From assembly GCA_038882655.1 (NCBI GenBank), contig JAVZNT010000001.1:1-64000 (forward strand): a stretch of 64,000 bases of DNA, read 5' to 3'. This DNA is from Candidatus Bathyarchaeia archaeon. Its GTDB lineage: Archaea > Thermoproteota > Bathyarchaeia > Bathyarchaeales > Bathycorpusculaceae. The notes beneath the pieces are model-generated. The model was not told the origin of the DNA, searched no databases, and worked only from the letters and a program-made list of their open reading frames with translations. Position 1 is the stretch's first letter; each line of letters begins with the position of its first letter. The position numbers and the translations under genes were made by a program. This document shows, piece after piece, positions 1 through 60,629 of the stretch.

Positions 1-708
1 CATCGCTTCCTTTCGTTGTAATCAGATACAGCAGATTATTTCCAATGCTCAGCGAATCAGCTATTGCCTTTTGCAAAAGTGCCGTGGCTACTCCTTTTCT
101 TCTATGTTCTGGGGCTGTTCCTACGGTGAAAATGCCTCCTACATTGTTGAATGACACGAGTCCGCAGACCCCTGCAGGCTTGCCTTGGAAACGTCCCAAA
201 TAAGCTTTAGTTCCCTTGTATTGAATCGCTTTTCCATACATATCTAGTAAAGCGTCACGCAAGACAACTGGAACTCCGAACGCCTTCATGTGAACATCTG
301 TCCAAACTCAAGCATACTCCCATCAACGACAACAACATTTACATCAGACCCAACTTCAAAACTCTTGCCCTCATCTCTGTAAACCATAGCAGTTTCCTCC
401 AATACAGGCTTAAACCCCGCTCGTTGAAGGTAATCTGTAAAGTTATGCGGGCGAGTCAATGGAGAAACCACAAAGCAGGGCTTAACCTCCATAGACTGGT
501 AATATCTAACAACATCTGCGATAAGCTTGTCTGCTTCGGACTCTGTAACGTTGACTCTAAAGGCATGATTGAAGTTTGCAGTAGGAATCCCTCTATGGGA
601 ACAGAGTGTTGCGTGACTAATGTCCTTCACATCGTTTACTAAACAATGAAGAGAATACAAATGCTCCTCTACTTGCCTACATATGTTTTCCATGTTTTCT
701 CCAGCCAT
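1..708 (-). pseudogene. GNAT acetyltransferase, frameshifted near 305-310, runs off the window start
   Basis: ORF 286..768 (likely start MAGENM at 708) stops early. The shifted frame continues WTDVHMKAFG...GGIFTVGTAPEHRRKGVATALLQKAI (GNAT acetyl-CoA motif A) to position 1. Could be a sequencing error. Confidence 0.7.
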
Positions 709-784
709 TGGCAGTTCTTTAGCGAGTGTGTAAATACTCTTATTTCGTTTCAGATATAGCTTTTTCACAAGATTGATGTAAAAG

Positions 785-897
785 TGCGGGGGGTGGGATT
801 TGAACCCACGAACCCCTATGGGACAGCCGTTCCGCGAAACTTTTGGAAATAGTTCCTCCTCAGGGCTGCGCCTTTGGCCAGGCTTGGCAACCCCCGC
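785..897 (-). tRNA. tRNA-Leu(GAG) with 28-nt intron (830-857) at position 37/38
   Basis: Acceptor GCGGGGG/CCCCCGC-A, D-arm GCCAAGCCTGGCCAAAGGC, anticodon stem CAGCC/GGCTG, CT-GAG-G, long variable arm, GTTCAAATC T-loop; intron forms a GGAACT/AGTTTC helix. Confidence 0.92.
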
Positions 898-991
898 TGC
901 GTCTCAGTTTATTTCTTAACTTTTAGGTGAAATTAAACCTTCCTTCTAGTGATTCTTATAATTGACTGTGAAAAAGATAGAGGTGAAAGTT

Positions 992-1504
992 TTAAACTAG
1001 TCTGAAATCCTCTTTTATTGTTGTTAGTACCACATGGGTGTTTGTTCTTTCCACATAGGGCATTGCTAACAAGCGTTTTGCAAATTTGCTTAGTTCCTCT
1101 CGGTTTTTGAATTTGGCGATTACTATGGCGTCTATTAGTCCAGTTACGTCGTAGACACAGCACACGTTTGGGAGCTTTGCGATTTCGCTTTCAACCTCTA
1201 ATAGTCTTCCTTTCGAAACTGTTATTTCGACCACAACGGTTAAAGCGTAGCCAAGTTTTTCGTGATCCACTAGGGCTGCATACCCCATTATTATGCCAGC
1301 CTCTTCCAGCTTCTTTACCCTTAATAGAGCTGTACTTGTGGATATGCCACACTGTTTAGCCAGTTGTCTTGAAGAAAGCCTTGCATCCAAAGTTAGAGCT
1401 TTTAAGATTTTCATGTCTACATCGTTTAATGCTTCCTCGTTTCTAGCACGTCTTTTCCCTGCCCTTTCTTTAGACTGTGACTTTCGAACATCCGTATCTT
1501 CCAT
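992..1504 (-). CDS. Lrp/AsnC family transcriptional regulator
   Basis: LNDVDMKIL...DARLSSRQLAK...RVKKLEEAGII HTH plus C-terminal RAM domain (YDVTGLIDAI); divergent from glnA. Confidence 0.93.
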   Translation of the reverse strand: MEDTDVRKSQSKERAGKRRARNEEALNDVDMKILKALTLDARLSSRQLAKQCGISTSTALLRVKKLEEAGIIMGYAALVDHEKLGYALTVVVEITVSKGRLLEVESEIAKLPNVCCVYDVTGLIDAIVIAKFKNREELSKFAKRLLAMPYVERTNTHVVLTTIKEDFRLV

Positions 1505-1645
1505 TACATATACGCTCCTTTATTTATGCTACATATGTACAACTTCTTCACTTTATATTTAACATTTGCCATCATCTTCTTTGAAAAGCCTTTTATATGT
1601 ATTGTCGAACTTTATTTTGCTGTAAAATTATCTAGAGGAAGCGTG

Positions 1646-3046
1646 ATGAGGAGTTCATTGCGGCGAATATTCCAGAATCAAAATGTTGAGTTGTGTTTCA
1701 AGCTTATGAAGAACGCTGACCATGTTCTGTTACATTTCACAGATTTGCTTGGCTTTTTTAAGGGCAGAACTATTCCCGTTGAAGAGGTGGAAAACGCCAT
1801 AGTTGAGGGCATTGGTTTTGATGGTTCCTCCTTGATTGGCGGAGTTGGCATAGAAGAAAGCGACATGCTTATGAAACCTGACATAACCACTTTCACGGTT
1901 TGCCCGTACTATTTTTACGACAAAAGCGTTGTAAGCTTCATTTGCAACTTATACACGCCGGAAGGCAAGTGCTTTGAAGGCGACCCAAGATACATCTGCC
2001 AAAGAACCTTTGGAAAATTAGAGGTCGAAGGATACGAGCCAACAGCAGCTGCGGAATTAGAATTTTACCTTGTGCAAAGAACCGCTGACGGTGGATTTCA
2101 ACCTGTTGAAAATCACCTCATAGATAAGCAACGCTATTTTGACATAGCCCCTGGGAGGGACGTCACTGAAGCCTTCCGAATGGAGTTAACCAACGCACTT
2201 TTCACCATGGGCATAGCTGTTGAAAGACAGCACCATGAAGTAGGCGCAGCCCAAAATGAAATTACCTTCAAGTACTCCGACCCTGTAACGACCGCAGATA
2301 ATATTATGCGCTATAAGTTTGCGGCTAAGGCTGTTGCTGATAGAAAATATGGTTGGATAGCCACCTTCATGCCCAAACCATGGTTTGGCAAGCCCGGAAA
2401 CGGCATGCACGTCCATCTAGGCCTCTTCGACTCGAAGACTAAAAGGAACATTTTCTATGATAAGAATGGTTATGCCCACCTATCCCAGAAGTGCCGCTAT
2501 TTCATAGGCGGAATCCTTGAGCACGCAAGGGCTTTATGCGCAGTTGCAGCGCCTACTGTCAACAGTTATAAGAGGCTTGTGCCCGGCTATGAGGCTCCAG
2601 TATACATCACTTGGAGTAGGAAAAACCGTTCAGCCTTGATCCGAGTACCAGAATACTTCCCAGGCAAGGAGAGTGAAGCCAGGATAGAATTCCGTTGTCC
2701 AGACCCACTTTGCAATCCCTATTTGGCTTATGCTGTGATTTTCGAGGCTGGTTTAGATGGCATTAAAAAGAAGATAGAGCCGGGCGACCCTGTTGACGTG
2801 AATGTCTACCATTTGAGTGAGGCAAAGCGGAGGGAACTTGGAATTAAGGTTCTGCCAGTCACACTTAAAGAAGCCTTGGAGGAGTTGAAGAGCGATGATG
2901 TTTGTATAAAAGCTTTGGGTAAAGAAAACTCTGAGAAATATTTGGAGCTTAAGATGCAAGAGTGGCGTGAATACGAGCCCCACATGCTTAAAGATAATAA
3001 GGACGCAGTTACGTTTTGGGAGTTGCAAAAGTACATCTACGCCTAA
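1646..3046 (+). CDS. glnA: Glutamine synthetase type I
   Basis: FDGSS, HHEVG, ATFMPKP..GNGMHVH, NRSALIRVP, RIEFRCPDP motifs. Start placed at ATG 1646 (ORF track gives 1526). Confidence 0.95.
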   Translation: MRSSLRRIFQNQNVELCFKLMKNADHVLLHFTDLLGFFKGRTIPVEEVENAIVEGIGFDGSSLIGGVGIEESDMLMKPDITTFTVCPYYFYDKSVVSFICNLYTPEGKCFEGDPRYICQRTFGKLEVEGYEPTAAAELEFYLVQRTADGGFQPVENHLIDKQRYFDIAPGRDVTEAFRMELTNALFTMGIAVERQHHEVGAAQNEITFKYSDPVTTADNIMRYKFAAKAVADRKYGWIATFMPKPWFGKPGNGMHVHLGLFDSKTKRNIFYDKNGYAHLSQKCRYFIGGILEHARALCAVAAPTVNSYKRLVPGYEAPVYITWSRKNRSALIRVPEYFPGKESEARIEFRCPDPLCNPYLAYAVIFEAGLDGIKKKIEPGDPVDVNVYHLSEAKRRELGIKVLPVTLKEALEELKSDDVCIKALGKENSEKYLELKMQEWREYEPHMLKDNKDAVTFWELQKYIYA

Positions 3047-54779: not shown

Positions 54780-55358
54780 TTATGGGGATGCCAGTTTTTT
54801 TAGGTCCTCCTCCCCCTCAGCGTAGCCGGAAGCGATTAGGATGTCGCCCACTTGGATTCGCGAGTCTGGTTTTGGGCGTATACATTTTTCTCCCCTTTTT
54901 ATAGCTAGAATCCACATGCCCGTTTCCTCTGGGATTTTTGCTTCCCGCAAAGTCTTGTTTGCTAAAGGTGAGTTTTCTGCTACCTTTGTGTACGTGATTG
55001 TTTCTTCTGCCTCTTCTATGGCTAGTGCGAGCACCGGGTGGGGTTCTATGCCTCTTAAAACGACTTCGGCTATTTGTGCAGCTGCATCAGCTATCTTTTC
55101 TGTTACAACGCCAAGTCTTATCAGTCCTAGGAAGCCTTTGGCTTCCTCTTTTTTGAATTTGCTTGATAGGACCAGTAGTTCAAATTCGGTGTGCAGTTTA
55201 TCCATGTATTCTTCGAGTTTTTGAACCTCTTCAGCTAGCTCCTTGCTGCTTAGGAGCAGCGATGAATAAGCCAAATCAATCATCAGTTCGGATGTGTCTT
55301 TAAGCTCTACGAAGCGTTCGACGATTTCCTCAAATTTTTTCTGGTTTTTCTCCGCCAT
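54780..55358 (-). CDS. PhoU + TrkA-C (RCK_C) domain protein
   Basis: LKDTSELMIDLAYS, EKIADAA, TGMWILAIKRG..P. Confidence 0.88.
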   Translation of the reverse strand: MAEKNQKKFEEIVERFVELKDTSELMIDLAYSSLLLSSKELAEEVQKLEEYMDKLHTEFELLVLSSKFKKEEAKGFLGLIRLGVVTEKIADAAAQIAEVVLRGIEPHPVLALAIEEAEETITYTKVAENSPLANKTLREAKIPEETGMWILAIKRGEKCIRPKPDSRIQVGDILIASGYAEGEEDLKKLASP

Positions 55359-55361
55359 AAA

Positions 55362-55970
55362 CTAGTCCTCCAGCTTGTCTGGTTTTCCCTCGCAGAGTTC
55401 CTTCAGCTCTTTTAATCCTTCGTGGGTGCCGCGGGCGATGAGGATGTCGCTAGCCTTGACTTTCTCTTTTTCTTTTGGGTTTATTATCCAGTCGTTTTCT
55501 CTGAATATGGCGATTATGTCTATGCCCATTCTTGGGGCTAGTTCGAGCTCGCCTATATCCTTTCCAACTAGAACCGATTTTTCGTTTACTTTGGCTTTTG
55601 CTAACCGTTCTTCAACTCTTTCGAAGATTTCGCCCACAATGGGATGTACCCCTATATTCTGCGTTACTATTGCAGCTATGTCTGCTGCAGCGTCTGAAAT
55701 TTTGTCTGTAGCGGCGGCCACCTTTGAAACACCAACCAGCACTTCTGCGTCTTTTGCGTCTCTTGCCGCCACCATAGTGACCATTTCAAGATGGTAAGCC
55801 AACGTGTCTATGCGTTTTTCCAGCTCCAAAACGTCTTCCGCCAAGTCTTTGTCGTTGAAGAGGGCAGCCGAATAAGCCAAGTCAATCATTAGTTCGGAGA
55901 GGTTTTTCATTTCGCGGAGAACTTCCCTCACTGTTACGGGCTTATATTCAATTTTTTCAAAGGGAGGCAT
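55362..55970 (-). CDS. PhoU + TrkA-C (RCK_C) domain protein
   Basis: MKNLSELMIDLAYSA, KISDAA, GIDIIAI.R...INP, LIARG. Confidence 0.88.
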   Translation of the reverse strand: MPPFEKIEYKPVTVREVLREMKNLSELMIDLAYSAALFNDKDLAEDVLELEKRIDTLAYHLEMVTMVAARDAKDAEVLVGVSKVAAATDKISDAAADIAAIVTQNIGVHPIVGEIFERVEERLAKAKVNEKSVLVGKDIGELELAPRMGIDIIAIFRENDWIINPKEKEKVKASDILIARGTHEGLKELKELCEGKPDKLED

Positions 55971-56053
55971 AGCGTTTTAGGCTCTCCGACCAGAATATTT
56001 AGCAGCGAACATTTTAACTCTTATCCCCTTAAGGCTGGCTTTTGGAGTAGTTT

Positions 56054-57256
56054 TCAAGCTAATATTCCAGTCCATAAGACAAGCGCCACAAGAAGCGAAA
56101 TAGTTGTTATACTGTCGGCAAGGGAACTCTCGATGGGAATTTCAAAATTGTCCGGGTCTAAACCCCTCTGATAGGTTAAGATGGCAACGGAATAGGAAAC
56201 CAAAATTATTAGAGAAGCGGCGAAAATGTTGACTGTGAAGAGGAAAAACGTAAATGTTACAAGGCTTACTGGCGCAAACGTTCCAGTTATTAGCAAGGCT
56301 AAAACTGAATAGGCAAAATACATTATTAGGGATGCAACCCACGCGCCTGAAATCTCCATCAAATGGCTTTTCATGGATGAAAATGACGCCTTAAGGGTTC
56401 CGAGAGCAAGTTTTGTTGTGGCTGTTGAGCCGACAACAGCGCCTACATCGCCTATAGTGTCAATTAACGCTGGATAAACAACATATACCTGGCTAAGTTC
56501 CTTTCCACGTATGAGTCCCTCCACCTTCCCCAAGGTTGCCCCCGCAACGTTAACTACAAAAGATACTAAAACAAGCGTTAACAGTGTTTCTTTCAAAGTT
56601 TTGATGAACTCTGGCTCCCTTGCATTTTTAACCAAAAAGAATGCAGAGGTTAATAGCAATGCCAAACTTATAAGAGTGAAGATATAGCTCCAGAGAAGGC
56701 TGTTGGCAAGGAAGAGACTAAGCACTGTGATGTATATTGAGGTTATTAGGAGGTCTGCCACGGTGGACTCTATTGGATATAAGATTATGTCTGGATCAAG
56801 TCCATGCTTAAAGGAGACGAAGGAAGCAGTCAACGTCAGCGGTGAAATGACAATTAACGCCAGAGTCATCGTCGCCATAAAAACGCTTATCAGACCCAAA
56901 AATTCTCCAAAGCCGCTTAAAAAGGCTGCAATTAGGCTCATCATGAGGCTTGCTTCGAAAGTCATAATCACAATTGCTTGGAAGAGTAAATAGAAACTCT
57001 TCGTGTTTCCGAAAAGGCGTGGTTGAACTGTTCCAAGGTGCAGAGCAGTGCTTAAACGTCCACAAAATAAGCCTCCTATAACCCCACGGGCACTGAGGAT
57101 AGGTGGATAGATCACGACTGCCCATGGTGCTTTTGCAAAAAGTCCAGAATTGAAAGCGATTATTGCTCCTGCAGCTATTCCGAAAATGTTGAAGGCGTAA
57201 GCCATCACTGACTGCTTTAGGGTTTCGGCGAATCGCGGTTTAGCCTTCAAAGCCAT
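56054..57256 (-). CDS. MgtE/SLC41-type divalent cation transporter (duplicated membrane domain)
   Basis: RLSTALHLG, GLDPD...P..ST.AD, TTKLALG, GLDPDN..IP..SSLAD. Confidence 0.9.
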   Translation of the reverse strand: MALKAKPRFAETLKQSVMAYAFNIFGIAAGAIIAFNSGLFAKAPWAVVIYPPILSARGVIGGLFCGRLSTALHLGTVQPRLFGNTKSFYLLFQAIVIMTFEASLMMSLIAAFLSGFGEFLGLISVFMATMTLALIVISPLTLTASFVSFKHGLDPDIILYPIESTVADLLITSIYITVLSLFLANSLLWSYIFTLISLALLLTSAFFLVKNAREPEFIKTLKETLLTLVLVSFVVNVAGATLGKVEGLIRGKELSQVYVVYPALIDTIGDVGAVVGSTATTKLALGTLKASFSSMKSHLMEISGAWVASLIMYFAYSVLALLITGTFAPVSLVTFTFFLFTVNIFAASLIILVSYSVAILTYQRGLDPDNFEIPIESSLADSITTISLLVALVLWTGILA

Positions 57257-57881: not shown

Positions 57882-58289
57882 TTAGGTTTCTGGCGAAGGA
57901 TAGCATGTGACGCACTTGCATTCCTTGAGGGTTGGCAGGTCTTCTTGATGAAGCTTGCAAATAACTTTTTCATATCTTATGGCAACGCATATTTCGCAAA
58001 GTTTCTCTATGACACTTTCCGGCGTTGCGTCTTCCCTGGCGAGGGCTTCAGCCAGTCTTGATATCATTTTCATGGCTTCTTCAGACCGGGCTATTTCCTT
58101 TGTAAGTGCCATTCCCCTTTCACCTTTAAAATATTGAGTTATGGCTGCAGGGGTTAGCTCCATCTTTTCAGAAGCCTCGATTTTTCTCATGTTGTACTTT
58201 TCTATGAGCTCTTTTGTTACTAGTACTCTTATTGCTGGGAGAAGGTATTTCACTACAATTACGCATGGGGGTTTCAAGGGTTTTCCCAT
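57882..58289 (-). CDS. HTH transcriptional regulator with Cys-rich ends (archaeal COG2522-like)
   Basis: KPPC.IVV..LLPAIR..., A..M.LT.AAITQY..G.RG, C..C...C..H...C.C; start ATG 58289. Confidence 0.82.
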   Translation of the reverse strand: MGKPLKPPCVIVVKYLLPAIRVLVTKELIEKYNMRKIEASEKMELTPAAITQYFKGERGMALTKEIARSEEAMKMISRLAEALAREDATPESVIEKLCEICVAIRYEKVICKLHQEDLPTLKECKCVTCYPSPET

Positions 58290-58352: not shown

Positions 58353-60077
58353 ATGACCGAAATCCACCTAACCACACTAGAAAAACTCCGCGAACACGAA
58401 GAAACAGACCCAACACACCTAAAAGAACTAACACAACAAATAGCCACGGACAAAATCCTAAAACAACCAATAGTTGTCGACGAAAAAACAAACACAATAT
58501 TGGACGGAGAACACCGCTTCAACGCCCTTAAAAGCCTCGGATGCAAAAGAATCCCAGTAATCTACGTGGATTACAACTCGCCAAACATCGTGGTCCAAAC
58601 ATGGAGAAACAGCTATAGCCTAACAAAAAGGGATGTTGTGGAAGCCGCTTTGTCTGGTAAGCGTTTTCCGCCTAAAACAACATGCCACATGATAAAAAAC
58701 AGTGAAACTCTGTCGCATCTATCGTCTATTGAGAAGAGGGTTGACATTCCTCTTGAAGTGCTGAAAAGCGAACTTACGCTTACCTCCATAAAAAATGTGA
58801 AAGTCGCCATGAATGTTGAACTCACAGATGTTCTGCCGGTATACGCTAGCTTCCTTAAAACAAAAGTTATTGATGTTCCCCTGATAATAGATAAGCGGAC
58901 AGGCGTTTTACTACATGGTTATGAAGCCTTCCAAGCGCTCGACCTACTCTCAGTAGAGAAAGCACCAACGTTTAAGGTGAACTTGAAAAAAGTGGAAATC
59001 AAGGTACCAAACATGGAAAACTTGTCTAAAGAAAGGATAATCGAAGCTGGGATTAATGGACCAAAACTCCCGCCAAAAAGTTTTACCCTCCTCACGGAGC
59101 CGGTCAAAATTAGTGTTCCTCTGGAGCGGTTAGTGGCTGAAAAGAGGCAAAGCAGCAAACTGCTTAAAGTTTACAATGGTACTTTAGAATTGCTTTATGA
59201 GGGGTGGCCAACCCCTCTTGTAAAGCTAAATTCCTTGTCTTCTGCTTTTCGCAGCGTTTGGGCTAAGCTTGAATGCTACAATCCCTTTAGCAACAGCATA
59301 AAGGACAGAATAGGCTGGGCAATGATTAAAGAAGCTATGGAAAATGGAGAACTTAAAACGCTTTTGTATGAAGCTACATCCACAAATACGGGGATAGCCC
59401 TAACCTCCATAGCCAACACCCTCGGCGTGAAAACAAGGCTTTACATACCAAAAACCATACAAAAAGCAAGCGACATCTACCTTGAAGTTCTCGGAGCAGA
59501 GGTCGTGCGGCTTCCAGTAGGCTTAACTGTTGAGGCAATAAGCCAAGTGGAAAAGGAGGCAAAAGCCGACAAGGCTGCACACCTAAACCAATTTGAAAAC
59601 GATGCCAACTTCAAAGTTCACCTAAAAAATACAGCTAGAGAAATAGACGAGCAGCTAAATAGCCTTGGCTTAAAGCCCACATGCATAATCGGCGGACTTG
59701 GAACATCAGGCCATATAAGCGCCATATCCTACTACTTCAAATCCAAATACGAAGACGATGTAAAAATCGTAGGTGTCCAACCAGCCCAAAACGAGATTAT
59801 CCCGGGCATTAGGAGGATAGAAACAGGCATGAAATGGTACCATAACGTATGCTTCGACGAAGTAGTGGACGTGAAGCAGACAGAAGCCATAGAAGGTGCA
59901 ATAAAAATAGCGAGAAAAGAAGGTCTACTTGTAGGGTTAAGCTCCGGAGCCGTTGTTTACGCCTTCCAGAAAATTGCCGAAGAAAAAGGCATATACGTTC
60001 TCGTTTTCCCAGACAGCGGATACAAGTATGTAGAACAGTTTGAAAAATATTTGGCAAGCGTTTCGCCGAAAAACTAG
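58353..60077 (+). CDS. Fusion of two SerK/ParB-like domains and a PLP-dependent cysteine synthase (O-phosphoserine sulfhydrylase type)
   Basis: LREHEE, ILDGEHR, TW, TK..V, PPKTT.H; degenerate second copy; WPTPLV, KLE.YNPFS.SIKDR, GLGTSGH, IPGIRR, PDSG.KY. Confidence 0.85.
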   Translation: MTEIHLTTLEKLREHEETDPTHLKELTQQIATDKILKQPIVVDEKTNTILDGEHRFNALKSLGCKRIPVIYVDYNSPNIVVQTWRNSYSLTKRDVVEAALSGKRFPPKTTCHMIKNSETLSHLSSIEKRVDIPLEVLKSELTLTSIKNVKVAMNVELTDVLPVYASFLKTKVIDVPLIIDKRTGVLLHGYEAFQALDLLSVEKAPTFKVNLKKVEIKVPNMENLSKERIIEAGINGPKLPPKSFTLLTEPVKISVPLERLVAEKRQSSKLLKVYNGTLELLYEGWPTPLVKLNSLSSAFRSVWAKLECYNPFSNSIKDRIGWAMIKEAMENGELKTLLYEATSTNTGIALTSIANTLGVKTRLYIPKTIQKASDIYLEVLGAEVVRLPVGLTVEAISQVEKEAKADKAAHLNQFENDANFKVHLKNTAREIDEQLNSLGLKPTCIIGGLGTSGHISAISYYFKSKYEDDVKIVGVQPAQNEIIPGIRRIETGMKWYHNVCFDEVVDVKQTEAIEGAIKIARKEGLLVGLSSGAVVYAFQKIAEEKGIYVLVFPDSGYKYVEQFEKYLASVSPKN

Positions 60078-60221: not shown

Positions 60222-60629
60222 ATGAAAAATTTAGCCACACTTAAAGTAAAAGTTAGCAGAATTATGACAAGAAACCTCATCACGGTTTCAGTTGGCAGCA
60301 CAGTGGAAGATGCTGTGAAAAAAATGATTGAATACGATGTGGAATGTCTACCCGTCATCGACTTGAAAGGCATTTTACAAGGCTTACTAACCTTCAGAGA
60401 CATAATAACAAAAGCCGTTTATTCACAGGCTAATGTAAGAAAGCTAAAAGTTGAAGACATAATGACAAAGGACCTTGTAACATGCCGACCCAACAACACC
60501 GTTCTCGACGTTGCTAAAACAATGAAAAATAGGCATCTCAGAAGAATCCCAGTAGTAAACGCCAAAAACAAACTTGTTGGTCTAATAACAGACTTTGACT
60601 TGGCGTTGTTCGGATGTGACTTCAAATAG
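60222..60629 (+). CDS. CBS domain pair protein
   Basis: VSRIMT..LITV, LPVID, VEDIMT..LVT, RRIPVV..LVGLIT. Confidence 0.92.
   Translation: MKNLATLKVKVSRIMTRNLITVSVGSTVEDAVKKMIEYDVECLPVIDLKGILQGLLTFRDIITKAVYSQANVRKLKVEDIMTKDLVTCRPNNTVLDVAKTMKNRHLRRIPVVNAKNKLVGLITDFDLALFGCDFK

Follow-up and report, generated by a model that had tools for sequence, protein, structure and literature searches.

Architecture of the locus

The window, by which we mean the whole 64,000-nucleotide stretch of DNA that was analyzed, carries on its forward strand a long ORF in which three parts can be recognized, and a small gene of the opposite orientation lies directly ahead of it. The features discussed here are the following:

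57882..58289, reverse strand: small divergent gene, 135 amino acids from an internal ATG, with an HTH-like core and Cys9/Cys98/Cys101
58353..60077, forward strand: the whole ORF, 574 amino acids, ATG start, uninterrupted
58353..58766, forward strand: D1, residues 1-138, a short SerK/SbnI-type kinase module with a ParB/sulfiredoxin-like core
58395..58400, forward strand: His15-Glu16 codons, Glu16 aligned with Glu30 of T. kodakarensis SerK
58773..59168, forward strand: D2, residues 141-272, a ParB/SerK-like pseudo-domain in degenerate form, which corresponds to the N-terminal domain of the O-phosphoserine sulfhydrylase (OPSS) of A. pernix
59169..60077, forward strand: PLP domain, residues 273-574 plus the stop codon, fold-type II beta-replacement enzyme of the Aeropyrum OPSS type
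59301..59303, forward strand: codon of Lys317, the counterpart in the alignment of Lys127, which forms the PLP Schiff base in A. pernix OPSS
59811..59816, forward strand: Arg487-Arg488 codons, Arg487 aligned with Arg297 of A. pernix OPSS

Just 7 more open codons precede the ATG of ORF 58353..60077. The initial annotation had described this gene as two serine-kinase-like domains fused to an OPSS, and all of the motifs on which it drew are present: HE at residue 15, DGEHR at 51, TW at 83, TKRDV at 91, and PKTTCH at 107 in D1; HGYEAF at 188, SKERI at 225, and LPPKSF at 239 in D2; and YNPFSNSIKDR at 309, GLGTSGH at 448, QPAQ at 476, and IPGIRRIETGM at 483 in the PLP domain. The sequence similarities of D1, D2, and the PLP part are far beyond chance. 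The fusion is no assembly artifact, since query coverage is at least 95% in 101 of the 120 best-matching protein clusters and, among 80 loci taken from species-representative genomes, 34 have the same continuous three-part ORF. The two AlphaFold models have high confidence (pTM 0.89), which fits one rigid three-part unit. Homologs in public databases are named “pyridoxal-phosphate dependent enzyme” or [quoted passage not shown], and Pfam assigns PF02195 and PF00291, close to the combination of ParB and cysteine synthase that had been anticipated from automated pipelines. We found no description in the literature of a serine-kinase module fused to OPSS.

The N-terminal kinase-like module

In family searches, D1 matched SerK (E 1.6e-19), SbnI (E 1.4e-12), and ParB_N (5e-7) among the NCBIfam and Pfam models, and a profile of partner-linked D1 homologs gave 7.4e-23 for SerK, 1.6e-13 for SbnI, and 3e-4 or worse for ParB/Noc. 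The SerK chain 5x0b_A was the top structural match among 48,161 representative chains and also came first in Foldseek, with VIA-align placing residues 1..138 of the D1 model on 15..242 of SerK (Z 14.5, rmsd 1.4 Å, 127 residues, 30% identity), followed by SbnI (Z 13.6; 5ujd, 5uje, 6nr6) and then sulfiredoxin (Z 8.5; 6ky4). SerK and SbnI outrank every ParB, Noc, and KorB structure by structure and profile comparison alike. The HMM and structural comparisons that the initial annotation had proposed thus placed D1 where it had expected, nearest to SerK and SbnI in sequence and fold, and no grouping with DNA-binding ParB was seen.

If the N-terminal domains were instead a ParB-type DNA-binding or CTPase clamp, the protein would have a DNA-related role, and Pfam ParB_N does pass its cut-off marginally (27–30 bits vs 26.3). 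TIGR00180 (ParB), however, reaches 28–32 bits, under its cut-off of 58.45, and matches the N-terminal fold alone; a profile search of the protein found neither the HTH nor the C-terminal dimerization domain of ParB clamps. The TIGR00180 result, the structure ranking, and the fusion to a metabolic PLP enzyme all contradict ParB-type DNA binding, which we reject as exceedingly improbable.

Glu16 aligns with Glu30 of SerK, and DGEHR and PKTTCH align with SerK DGHHR and PKTTRH. Glu30 is reportedly the catalytic glutamate of Tk-SerK (Nagata 2017). Glu30 is the residue changed in the E30A and E30Q crystal structures, as their PDB entry titles state. All 39 fused proteins keep H15, E16, G52, H54, R55, Y74, K92, P106, and H112, with D51 and K108 (37/39 each) and T109 (35/39) less strict, and the Glu16 equivalent is also invariant in 19/19 partner-linked stand-alone proteins.

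SerK of T. kodakarensis (TK0378, ADP-dependent; 5x0b; Pyrococcus ortholog 1vk1) therefore has in common with D1 a core fold and the HE, DGxHR, TK, and PKTTxH motifs, the Glu30 equivalent included, but it is 242 residues long, whereas D1 has about 138. What is missing corresponds to SerK residues ~106-203 (about 98 residues): one alignment jumps from 116 to 203, the profile alignment from 105 to 204, and the parts flanking the missing segment use up the whole of D1 in the superposition. Both alignments thus bear out the earlier remark that D1 is without the central insertion of SerK. The SerK equivalog model NF053625 has a cut-off of 380 bits, which neither the whole protein (64.2 bits) nor D1 alone (70 bits) reaches, and its match is restricted to profile positions 16-102 of 244.

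Two other systems offer instructive comparisons. [quoted passage not shown] The logic is like that of the fusion, a ParB-like serine kinase feeding Sep to a PLP beta-replacement enzyme, although SbnI is a separate bacterial polypeptide of 254 amino acids and SbnA produces a precursor of a siderophore instead of cysteine. Sulfiredoxin, a minimal version of the D1 fold, carries out ATP-dependent phosphotransfer on protein cysteine sulfinic acid rather than on free serine, and it is without the TK...PKTTxH C-terminal element common to D1 and SerK.

These features bear on a rival explanation in which D1 is a nucleotide-sensing regulator, or a kinase acting on something other than serine, that tunes cysteine synthesis to the energy or nucleotide state instead of supplying substrate, while the OPSS gets its Sep from a SerA/SerC route. 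The ~98 missing residues and the score far under the SerK cut-off speak for it, as does the fact that ParB-type folds are general NTP-binding modules; in a survey of ParB folds, the sole SerK-like archaeal protein tested is reported to have bound CTP, not ATP (PMC12704722). On the other hand, the Glu, DGxHR, and PKT(S/T)xH residues are kept in 35–39 of 39 proteins while the pseudo-domain D2 lost them, and sulfiredoxin (ATP complexes in the PDB) shows that the bare fold can do phosphotransfer.

A complete Aeropyrum-type sulfhydrylase behind the module

D1 and D2 are 26% identical by BLASTP (E 7e-13), and across the 39 fused proteins the catalytic positions of D1 (Glu16 and the DGxHR and PKT(S/T)xH residues) are replaced in D2. 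Searched alone, D2 has no significant family match in Pfam or NCBIfam, and its identity rests on the internal BLAST, profile comparison, and fold. Residues 142-568, which is to say D2 together with the PLP part, superpose on residues 2-383 of 1wkv_A with Z 38.5, rmsd 2.4 Å, and 36% identity, aligning 373 residues of the 382-residue chain, whereas ordinary CysK, CysM, and CBS structures align to the model only from about residue 265-275. Because D2 plus PLP superposes on the complete A. pernix OPSS, D2 is the OPSS's own N-terminal domain, and because this domain belongs to all Aeropyrum-type OPSS, the architecture is that of a short kinase ahead of a whole OPSS, not of two kinase domains ahead of a PLP core. 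The testable parts of the initial annotation all held, its description of D2 as a degenerate copy included, with the refinement that D2 did not arise with the fusion.

Comparison by hhalign of short-OPSS N-termini with short kinases (96.5%, E 7.5e-10) shows the N-terminal domain of Aeropyrum-type OPSS to be a decayed ParB/SerK fold, which supplies an origin for an unexplained domain of a well-studied enzyme. A. pernix OPSS (CysO/ApOPSS; 1wkv, 3vsc, 6l0q) and the window's protein have this extra N-terminal domain in common, as well as the PLP lysine and the arginine at position 297 of ApOPSS, but D2 is ~45 residues longer than its ApOPSS counterpart, and ApOPSS is a stand-alone protein of 389 amino acids where the window's protein has a kinase module ahead of D2.

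The PLP part matches PF00291 (E 3.7e-48, 164.8 bits vs a cut-off of 35) and misses the cut-offs of the canonical cysteine synthase models TIGR01136/01138/01139 (cysKM 192 vs 344; cysM 174 vs 394; cysK 168 vs 351). Against A. pernix OPSS 1wkv it gives E 3.6e-61, the next family following at 6e-35. Lys317, Ser343, Gln413, and Arg487 are invariant in 76/76 sequences, while Thr342 is absent from the conserved columns listed for the same 76. In the alignment with A. pernix OPSS, of which PDB 3vsc is the K127A mutant, Thr342, Ser343, and Gln413 are identical to Thr152, Ser153, and Gln224, which we take to be further Sep contacts. Arg297 of that enzyme recognizes Sep according to Makino 2016, and with its equivalent Arg487 in place and 1wkv as best match, the assignment to OPSS made in the initial annotation stands.

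In a second rival explanation, D1 supplies Sep to a PLP domain that uses a protein thiocarboxylate, on a carrier of the MoaD/ThiS/SAMP type, or some other nucleophile in place of free sulfide, in which case the released product would not directly be free cysteine. Protein thiocarboxylate is the sulfur source in the CysM-CysO system of M. tuberculosis, and the PLP domain has structures of CysM from M. tuberculosis among its close neighbors in fold (Z 34). In relatives that are 65–68% identical over D2-PLP, a MoaD-family N-terminal domain replaces D1; this domain ends in ...SGG or ...SG, PF02597 is found in 6 of the 120 best clusters, and the relative P0112 scores 64 bits against TIGR01687 (cut-off 49.5). 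With MoaD/ThiS standing where D1 would be, such relatives may rely on a different sulfur donor. The window's protein, however, is without a MoaD domain, and A. pernix OPSS, the nearest relative with a solved structure, is described in PDB titles and in Makino 2016 as a sulfhydrylase whose substrate is Sep, so we regard a thiocarboxylate or other nucleophile in place of sulfide as quite improbable here.

Linkage to Sep-using enzymes and a proposed route from serine to cysteine

The initial annotation had asked how widespread the fusion is. Of 80 related loci, 34 have the kinase module fused, 1 has a partial fusion, and 18 have the module in a gene of its own next door. In 11 of these 18 the kinase gene precedes, by 0–85 nt and in the same orientation, a gene for an OPSS of 389–402 amino acids, and in 7 it is a divergent neighbor. 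The fetched flanks contained no kinase gene at 19/80 loci encoding D2-PLP proteins and 5/80 encoding short OPSS. Split kinase and OPSS genes are found in MAGs labeled Pyrodictium, Thermodiscus, Desulfurococcales, Thermofilaceae, Wolframiiraptor, and Geocrenenecus; in the first three, the short kinase is encoded separately, upstream of OPSS proteins similar to ApOPSS in size. The tree was a quick one, midpoint-rooted and with SH-aLRT branch support, and no direction of fusion or fission is read from it. A complex prediction for the unfused Pyrodictium pair (L068 OPSS 1-100 with L068 short kinase 38-172) scored 0.01 (mark 0.32), which counts neither for nor against docking.

The minimal serine-kinase-like module of ~130–140 residues has hundreds of cluster representatives, and it is repeatedly coupled to other enzymes that use or may use Sep. 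Both in the genome to which the window belongs and at 7/7 evaluable ortholog loci, a gene for a TrpB-like enzyme lies directly upstream of the short homolog, TrpB2 enzymes having been reported as O-phosphoserine-dependent (Busch 2014, as cited in PMC11917138). CysM-like enzymes of 303–305 amino acids lie downstream of the short homolog in 3 loci, a SepCysS over its cut-off adjoins it in 1 locus, and one protein fuses the module to a phosphoglycerate-dehydrogenase-like segment. Other fusion partners of the module are a methyltransferase, nucleotidyltransferases, and a cytidylyltransferase, and BacA or LysRS genes adjoin it at 7 loci, so the module family overall is not tied to serine.

These unrelated fusions would suit a regulator or a kinase of another substrate, as would the SerA-like dehydrogenase gene of the window's genome, because 3-phosphoglycerate could then be a second source of Sep and there would be no strict need for the kinase. 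Against this, the module is coupled to four Sep-using or Sep-dependent systems (OPSS, TrpB-like, CysM-like, and SepCysS), for which supply of a shared substrate is simpler than regulation of four unrelated proteins. We therefore consider it unlikely that D1 serves regulation or phosphorylates something other than serine.

The 574-amino-acid protein is, in our judgment, probably a bifunctional enzyme converting serine to Sep and Sep to cysteine. D1 would act as a minimal free-serine kinase in which Glu16, the putative base, assists the transfer of a nucleotide phosphate onto the L-serine hydroxyl. The PLP domain, with Lys317 as internal aldimine, would bind the resulting Sep through Arg487, Thr342/Ser343, and Gln413, eliminate its phosphate to give the aminoacrylate, and add what is presumably sulfide to yield L-cysteine, while D2, a catalytically dead ancestral OPSS N-terminal domain, may fix the position of the kinase on the sulfhydrylase; Sep could then be channeled between the active sites.

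Several lines of evidence argue for this bifunctional route. D1 is nearest to two characterized free-serine kinases and keeps the catalytic motif residues of SerK that D2 is without; D2 and the PLP part make up a whole A. pernix OPSS with its Sep-site residues; the fused and adjacent arrangements over 80 loci form a Rosetta-stone pattern; and short homologs are coupled to other Sep-related enzymes. In the window's genome, which is 84% complete, CysE, SepRS, SepCysS, and SerB were not found over cut-off, and the fused gene is the sole cysteine-synthase-type gene. There is also precedent, since in T. kodakarensis SerK and CysK together convert serine to cysteine by way of Sep (Makino 2016). The role proposed for SerK there, to provide a cysteine synthase with Sep, is the one proposed here for D1, the difference being that D1 and its partner enzyme form one polypeptide, while serK of T. 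kodakarensis, according to the same paper, is not even in an operon. Weighing against a serine-to-cysteine bifunctional enzyme are the size and SerK score of D1, the fusions and neighbors of the module that have no link to serine, the SerA-like gene, the relatives with MoaD/ThiS in place of D1, and the 19 loci with D2-PLP proteins and 5 with short OPSS that have no kinase gene in the fetched flank, and in view of the CTP binding described above the phosphate donor of D1 need not be ADP or ATP.

A broader and distinctly more tentative possibility is that the short SerK-like module constitutes a general Sep supply kinase of many archaea, repeatedly recruited to OPSS, CysM-like, TrpB2, and SepRS-SepCysS systems. 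If so, the OPSS N-terminal domain may be a fossil kinase serving as docking site for an active one, and the resulting metabolon for Ser -> Sep -> Cys would have become covalent in the bathyarchaeal fusion.

Cysteine routes are still unassigned in many archaea, and a serine-kinase/OPSS fusion would give direct genomic evidence for the path through Sep in uncultured hot-spring Bathyarchaeia. This route has so far been shown in Thermococcus, and the split genes would extend it to MAGs of the Pyrodictium, Thermofilaceae, and Wolframiiraptor types, among others. The linkage to TrpB2 ties a minimal serine-kinase-like module to an enzyme whose Sep source and cellular role are open questions, and a compact one-polypeptide catalyst from serine to cysteine or to Sep would serve enzyme cascades and phosphoserine supply in engineered strains.

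As to the neighboring genes, the downstream CBS-domain gene is conserved in just 8/32 fused loci, and we reject it as a functional partner for that reason. The 135-amino-acid protein encoded by the divergent gene has no Pfam match at 1e-3 and nothing meaningful in NCBIfam, its match to HTH_3 being weak (E 0.0038). Its homologs occur in 45/80 loci, including 32/34 fused loci, with Cys9, Cys98, and Cys101 invariant in 46/46 sequences, and from these sequence features it is a candidate regulator.

Domain make-up of the fusion protein

The initial annotation had read this gene as two domains resembling ParB and SerK (the serine kinase of Thermococcus kodakarensis) joined to an O-phosphoserine sulfhydrylase (OPSS) in one polypeptide, and every motif it listed is present where it had been placed. 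The ORF is uninterrupted and starts with ATG.

58353..60077, + strand: fusion gene, 574 aa (D1, residues 1-138; D2, 141-272; PLP part, 273-574)

The closest relatives come from MAGs labelled Bathyarchaeia, and 101 of the 120 best protein clusters share 61-86% identity with the fusion protein over at least 95% of its length. Pfam recognizes PALP (residues 283-544, E 3.7e-48) and, just over the cut-off, ParB_N (13-75, 27.2 bits versus 26.3).

D1 is a SerK-type core without the insertion, a shorter relative of SerK. It matches the NCBIfam SerK model at E 1.6e-19 and 70 bits, the model of SbnI (a Staphylococcus serine kinase) at 1.4e-12, and ParB models more weakly; since it misses the SerK equivalog cut-off of 380 bits, we do not class it as a SerK orthologue. 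The best PDB sequences are T. kodakarensis SerK (5x0b, 2.2e-9), its Pyrococcus orthologue 1vk1 and SbnI, with ParB and Noc at 0.04 or worse. For a highly confident AlphaFold2 model of residues 1-275 (75 sequences, pLDDT 94.6, pTM 0.89), Foldseek ranks SerK and SbnI on top (E about 1e-8 to 1e-7) and Noc, ParB and sulfiredoxin from 4e-4. An exhaustive VIA-align comparison of the model with 48,161 representative chains puts 5x0b_A first (Z 14.5; 127 residues at rmsd 1.4 Å and 30% identity, with model 1..138 on chain 15..242), ahead of SbnI (Z 13.6) and sulfiredoxin (Z 8.5). The affinity to SerK and SbnI first read from motifs thus holds by HMM and structure comparison alike, both outscoring ParB and Noc. 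The central part of SerK is absent from D1, as had been suspected: the alignment falls into two pieces (query 8-98 with SerK 22-116, query 90-115 with SerK 203-228) that skip from SerK 116 to 203. Glu16 aligns with SerK Glu30, the residue changed in the E30A and E30Q crystal structures, and all 39 fused proteins keep each of His15, Glu16, Gly52, His54, Arg55, Tyr74, Lys92, Pro106 and His112. His-Glu, Asp-Gly-x-His-Arg and Thr..His are invariant in 19/19 aligned kinase modules, stand-alone or fused.

The proposed likeness of the PLP part to Aeropyrum-type OPSS also stood: searched against all PDB sequences, its top match is Aeropyrum pernix OPSS (1wkv, E 3.6e-61, fusion residues 273-565 with chain 83-380), and ordinary cysteine synthases follow from 6e-35. 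Canonical CysK or CysM identity is ruled out because the NCBIfam cysKM, cysM and cysK models score 168-192 bits on the fusion protein, far under their cut-offs of 344-394. Lys317 aligns with the Schiff-base Lys127 of 1wkv (mutated in 3vsc, K127A) and Arg487 with Arg297, which according to Makino et al. 2016 (PMC5120207) takes part in recognition of O-phosphoserine (Sep); Lys317, Ser343, Gln413 and Arg487/Arg488 are invariant among 76 aligned family members.

D2 is a pseudo-domain. No family model in Pfam or NCBIfam matches it, yet BLASTP aligns residues 141-270 with D1 (26% identity, E 7e-13), and in 71 sequences Ala/Pro stands in place of His15, Met/Val of Glu16, Glu of His54 and Ala/Val of Arg55, so that "degenerate copy" was an apt description; its conserved positions are for the most part hydrophobic. 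In the full-length model (pLDDT 92.6, pTM 0.89), residues 142-568 superpose as a single body on residues 2-383 of 1wkv_A (Z 38.5, rmsd 2.4 Å, 36% identity, with 373 of the chain's 382 residues aligned), whereas alignments with CysK, CysM, CBS and SbnA structures begin only at about residue 265-275 (Z 33-34). Even with the two-domain 1-275 model, the match to 1wkv_A had begun at chain residue 2 (Z 6.8). When 14 OPSS proteins of 389-424 aa were compared by profile with 19 short homologues of D1, which we call short kinases, OPSS residues 1-66 corresponded to the ParB-like core of the kinases (96.5% probability, E 7.5e-10). From this match and the superposition it follows that the characteristic N-terminal domain of Aeropyrum-type OPSS is a ParB/SerK-like domain that has decayed, and that D2 is its longer version. 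The fusion protein is therefore best described as a short kinase plus a complete Aeropyrum-type OPSS. One cluster representative, P0122 (269 aa, 53% identity to residues 3-245), has D1 and D2 without a PLP domain, being a fragment or else a free-standing protein of two domains.

Short kinases and their partners across genomes

Residues 1-272, used as query in an exhaustive HMMER search, returned 1659 cluster representatives at E <= 1e-3 (711 at <= 1e-10), of which the best 150 are mostly 120-190-aa proteins with 35-50% identity to D1. A profile of the partner-linked short kinases matches SerK at 7.4e-23 over residues 14-105 and 204-241, so by alignment SerK itself looks like the short module with about 98 residues inserted. 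Makino 2016 (PMC5120207) reports that only four genera have clear homologues of SerK.

How widespread the fusion is, a question left by the initial annotation, was surveyed in 80 loci of species-representative genomes, classed by ORF-level phmmer searches. D1, D2 and the PLP part are fused in 34 loci, and one more has a partial D1. A separate 145-173-aa kinase gene lies 0-85 nt upstream of a 389-402-aa OPSS gene, on the same strand, in 11 (MAGs labelled Pyrodictium, Pyrodictiaceae, Thermodiscus, Desulfurococcales, Thermofilaceae, Geocrenenecus, Caldarchaeales, Nitrososphaerales and Nitrososphaeria). Seven loci, from Wolframiiraptor, Nitrososphaeria and one "uncultured archaeon" MAG, have a divergently transcribed kinase gene beside a D2-PLP gene, which at one of them (L061) is two ORFs. 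D2-PLP occurs without a kinase gene within the flank in 19 loci and short OPSS without one in 5; contig ends cut 3. The fused gene is uncommon, found in 3/201 genomes of an even sample of the class, all of one family and including the window's own. The module itself, searched with a 210-aa protein from the window's genome, was found in 75 of the 201.

That 210-aa protein, whose C-terminal extension has many charged residues, is encoded 21 nt downstream of a TrpB-like gene on contig C2 (locus L002) of the window's genome:

1132..1764, - strand: second short SerK-like gene, 210 aa
1786..3147, - strand: TrpB-like PLP enzyme gene, 453 aa

The TrpB-like enzyme scores 695 bits with NF009057 and 682 bits with TIGR01415, and the pair is kept in all 7 evaluable orthologue loci from other genomes of the class (L088-L094); an eighth locus runs into a contig end. 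TrpB2 enzymes reportedly use Sep (Busch 2014, as cited in PMC11917138), and the gene pair suggests a route from Ser through Sep to Trp with the kinase as phosphoserine source for TrpB2. Elsewhere, in 3 loci, a short kinase gene directly precedes the gene of a CysM-like enzyme of 303-305 aa (cysKM 325-336 bits in the two that were scanned, versus a cut-off of 344), and in one locus (L109) such a gene directly follows that of a true SepCysS (409 bits versus 365):

250..1428, + strand: SepCysS gene
1465..1902, + strand: short SerK-like gene
2180..2608, + strand: tRNA-Thr-ED gene

This locus ties the kinase to tRNA-dependent cysteine formation, a route that depends on free phosphoserine. Short kinases also sit beside BacA, of the undecaprenyl-diphosphatase family (5 loci, four from one genus: L099, L102, L103, L107, L112), and class I LysRS (L096, L098), which may be mere synteny, and the module is fused to a SAM methyltransferase, an NTP_transferase, a cytidylyltransferase-like domain and a phosphoglycerate-dehydrogenase-like segment (P0245, P0268, P0264, P0174). 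The family is probably not limited to one substrate. A quick, unrooted tree of kinase modules groups fused D1 with three CysM-linked copies (SH-aLRT 99), places OPSS-adjacent copies of other lineages in a separate group (84) and unites the TrpB-linked copies in a clade (99).

Gene context and a proposed route to cysteine

The genes flanking the fusion in the window are the following:

54780..57256, - strand: two PhoU + TrkA_C proteins and an MgtE-type divalent cation transporter, upstream
57882..58289, - strand: HTH-like 135-aa protein, divergently transcribed
60222..60629, + strand: CBS-domain pair protein, directly downstream

The 135-aa protein gene is conserved beside the OPSS gene in 45 of the 80 loci, including 32 of the 34 fused ones. 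No family was assigned to the protein, which has an HTH-like core with Cys9, Cys98 and Cys101 invariant (46/46), and we consider it a candidate redox-, sulfide- or metal-sensing regulator. Its listed GTG ORF (161 aa) overlaps the fusion gene start, and homologous sequences suggest the shorter ATG start. In 20-22 of the 32 fused loci examined, synteny extends from the fusion gene to the PhoU/TrkA_C/MgtE block; the CBS-domain protein is probably no dedicated partner, since it is kept in only 8/32.

In the window's genome (27 contigs, 1.02 Mb, 84% complete), the fusion is the only cysteine-synthase-type gene found; CysE has no match, and the SepRS, SepCysS and SerB models have only weak, sub-cut-off ones, though at 84% completeness such genes may still be present. 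The architecture, folds, residue conservation and gene coupling of the fusion are established here. Its most likely mechanism is a two-step conversion of Ser through Sep to Cys, for which we infer substrate, donor, sulfur source and channelling. D1 would phosphorylate free serine with Glu16 as base, the PLP domain would turn Sep into cysteine with sulfide, and D2 would serve as a rigid scaffold between them. This would be the T. kodakarensis route of SerK and CysK (Makino 2016) on one polypeptide, with a parallel in SbnI and SbnA. Weighing against it are the sub-cut-off score of D1 and its missing insertion, the non-serine contexts of the short kinases, and CTP binding reported for the sole SerK-like protein tested in a ParB-fold survey (PMC12704722). 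In addition, SerA may supply Sep independently of D1; the window's genome encodes a SerA-like dehydrogenase (344 aa, 293 bits, under the full-length cut-off). The CysM-like and TrpB-like partners of short kinases lack the pseudo-domain, which argues against a need for D2 in kinase activity.

Both activities and the pathway are already known; what is new is the fusion, the kinase in its minimal form and the origin of D2. In the full-text literature searched, which included PMC5120207, PMC12704722, PMC13759103 and PMC5424206 and had most subscription journals and all supplements outside it, neither a fusion of SerK with OPSS nor an operon of TrpB2 and a kinase is mentioned, and nowhere is the N-terminal domain of OPSS described as ParB-like.

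In a further set of relatives (P0112, P0113, P0115, P0116, P0118, P0121; 536-545 aa), and probably also at L086 (3696..5312), a MoaD/ThiS/SAMP-like domain stands in place of D1 before D2-PLP. This domain matches PF02597 (and TIGR01687 at 64 bits in P0112) and ends in ...SGG or ...SG. The arrangement hints that a protein thiocarboxylate donates the sulfur or that the protein is a precursor which is cleaved.
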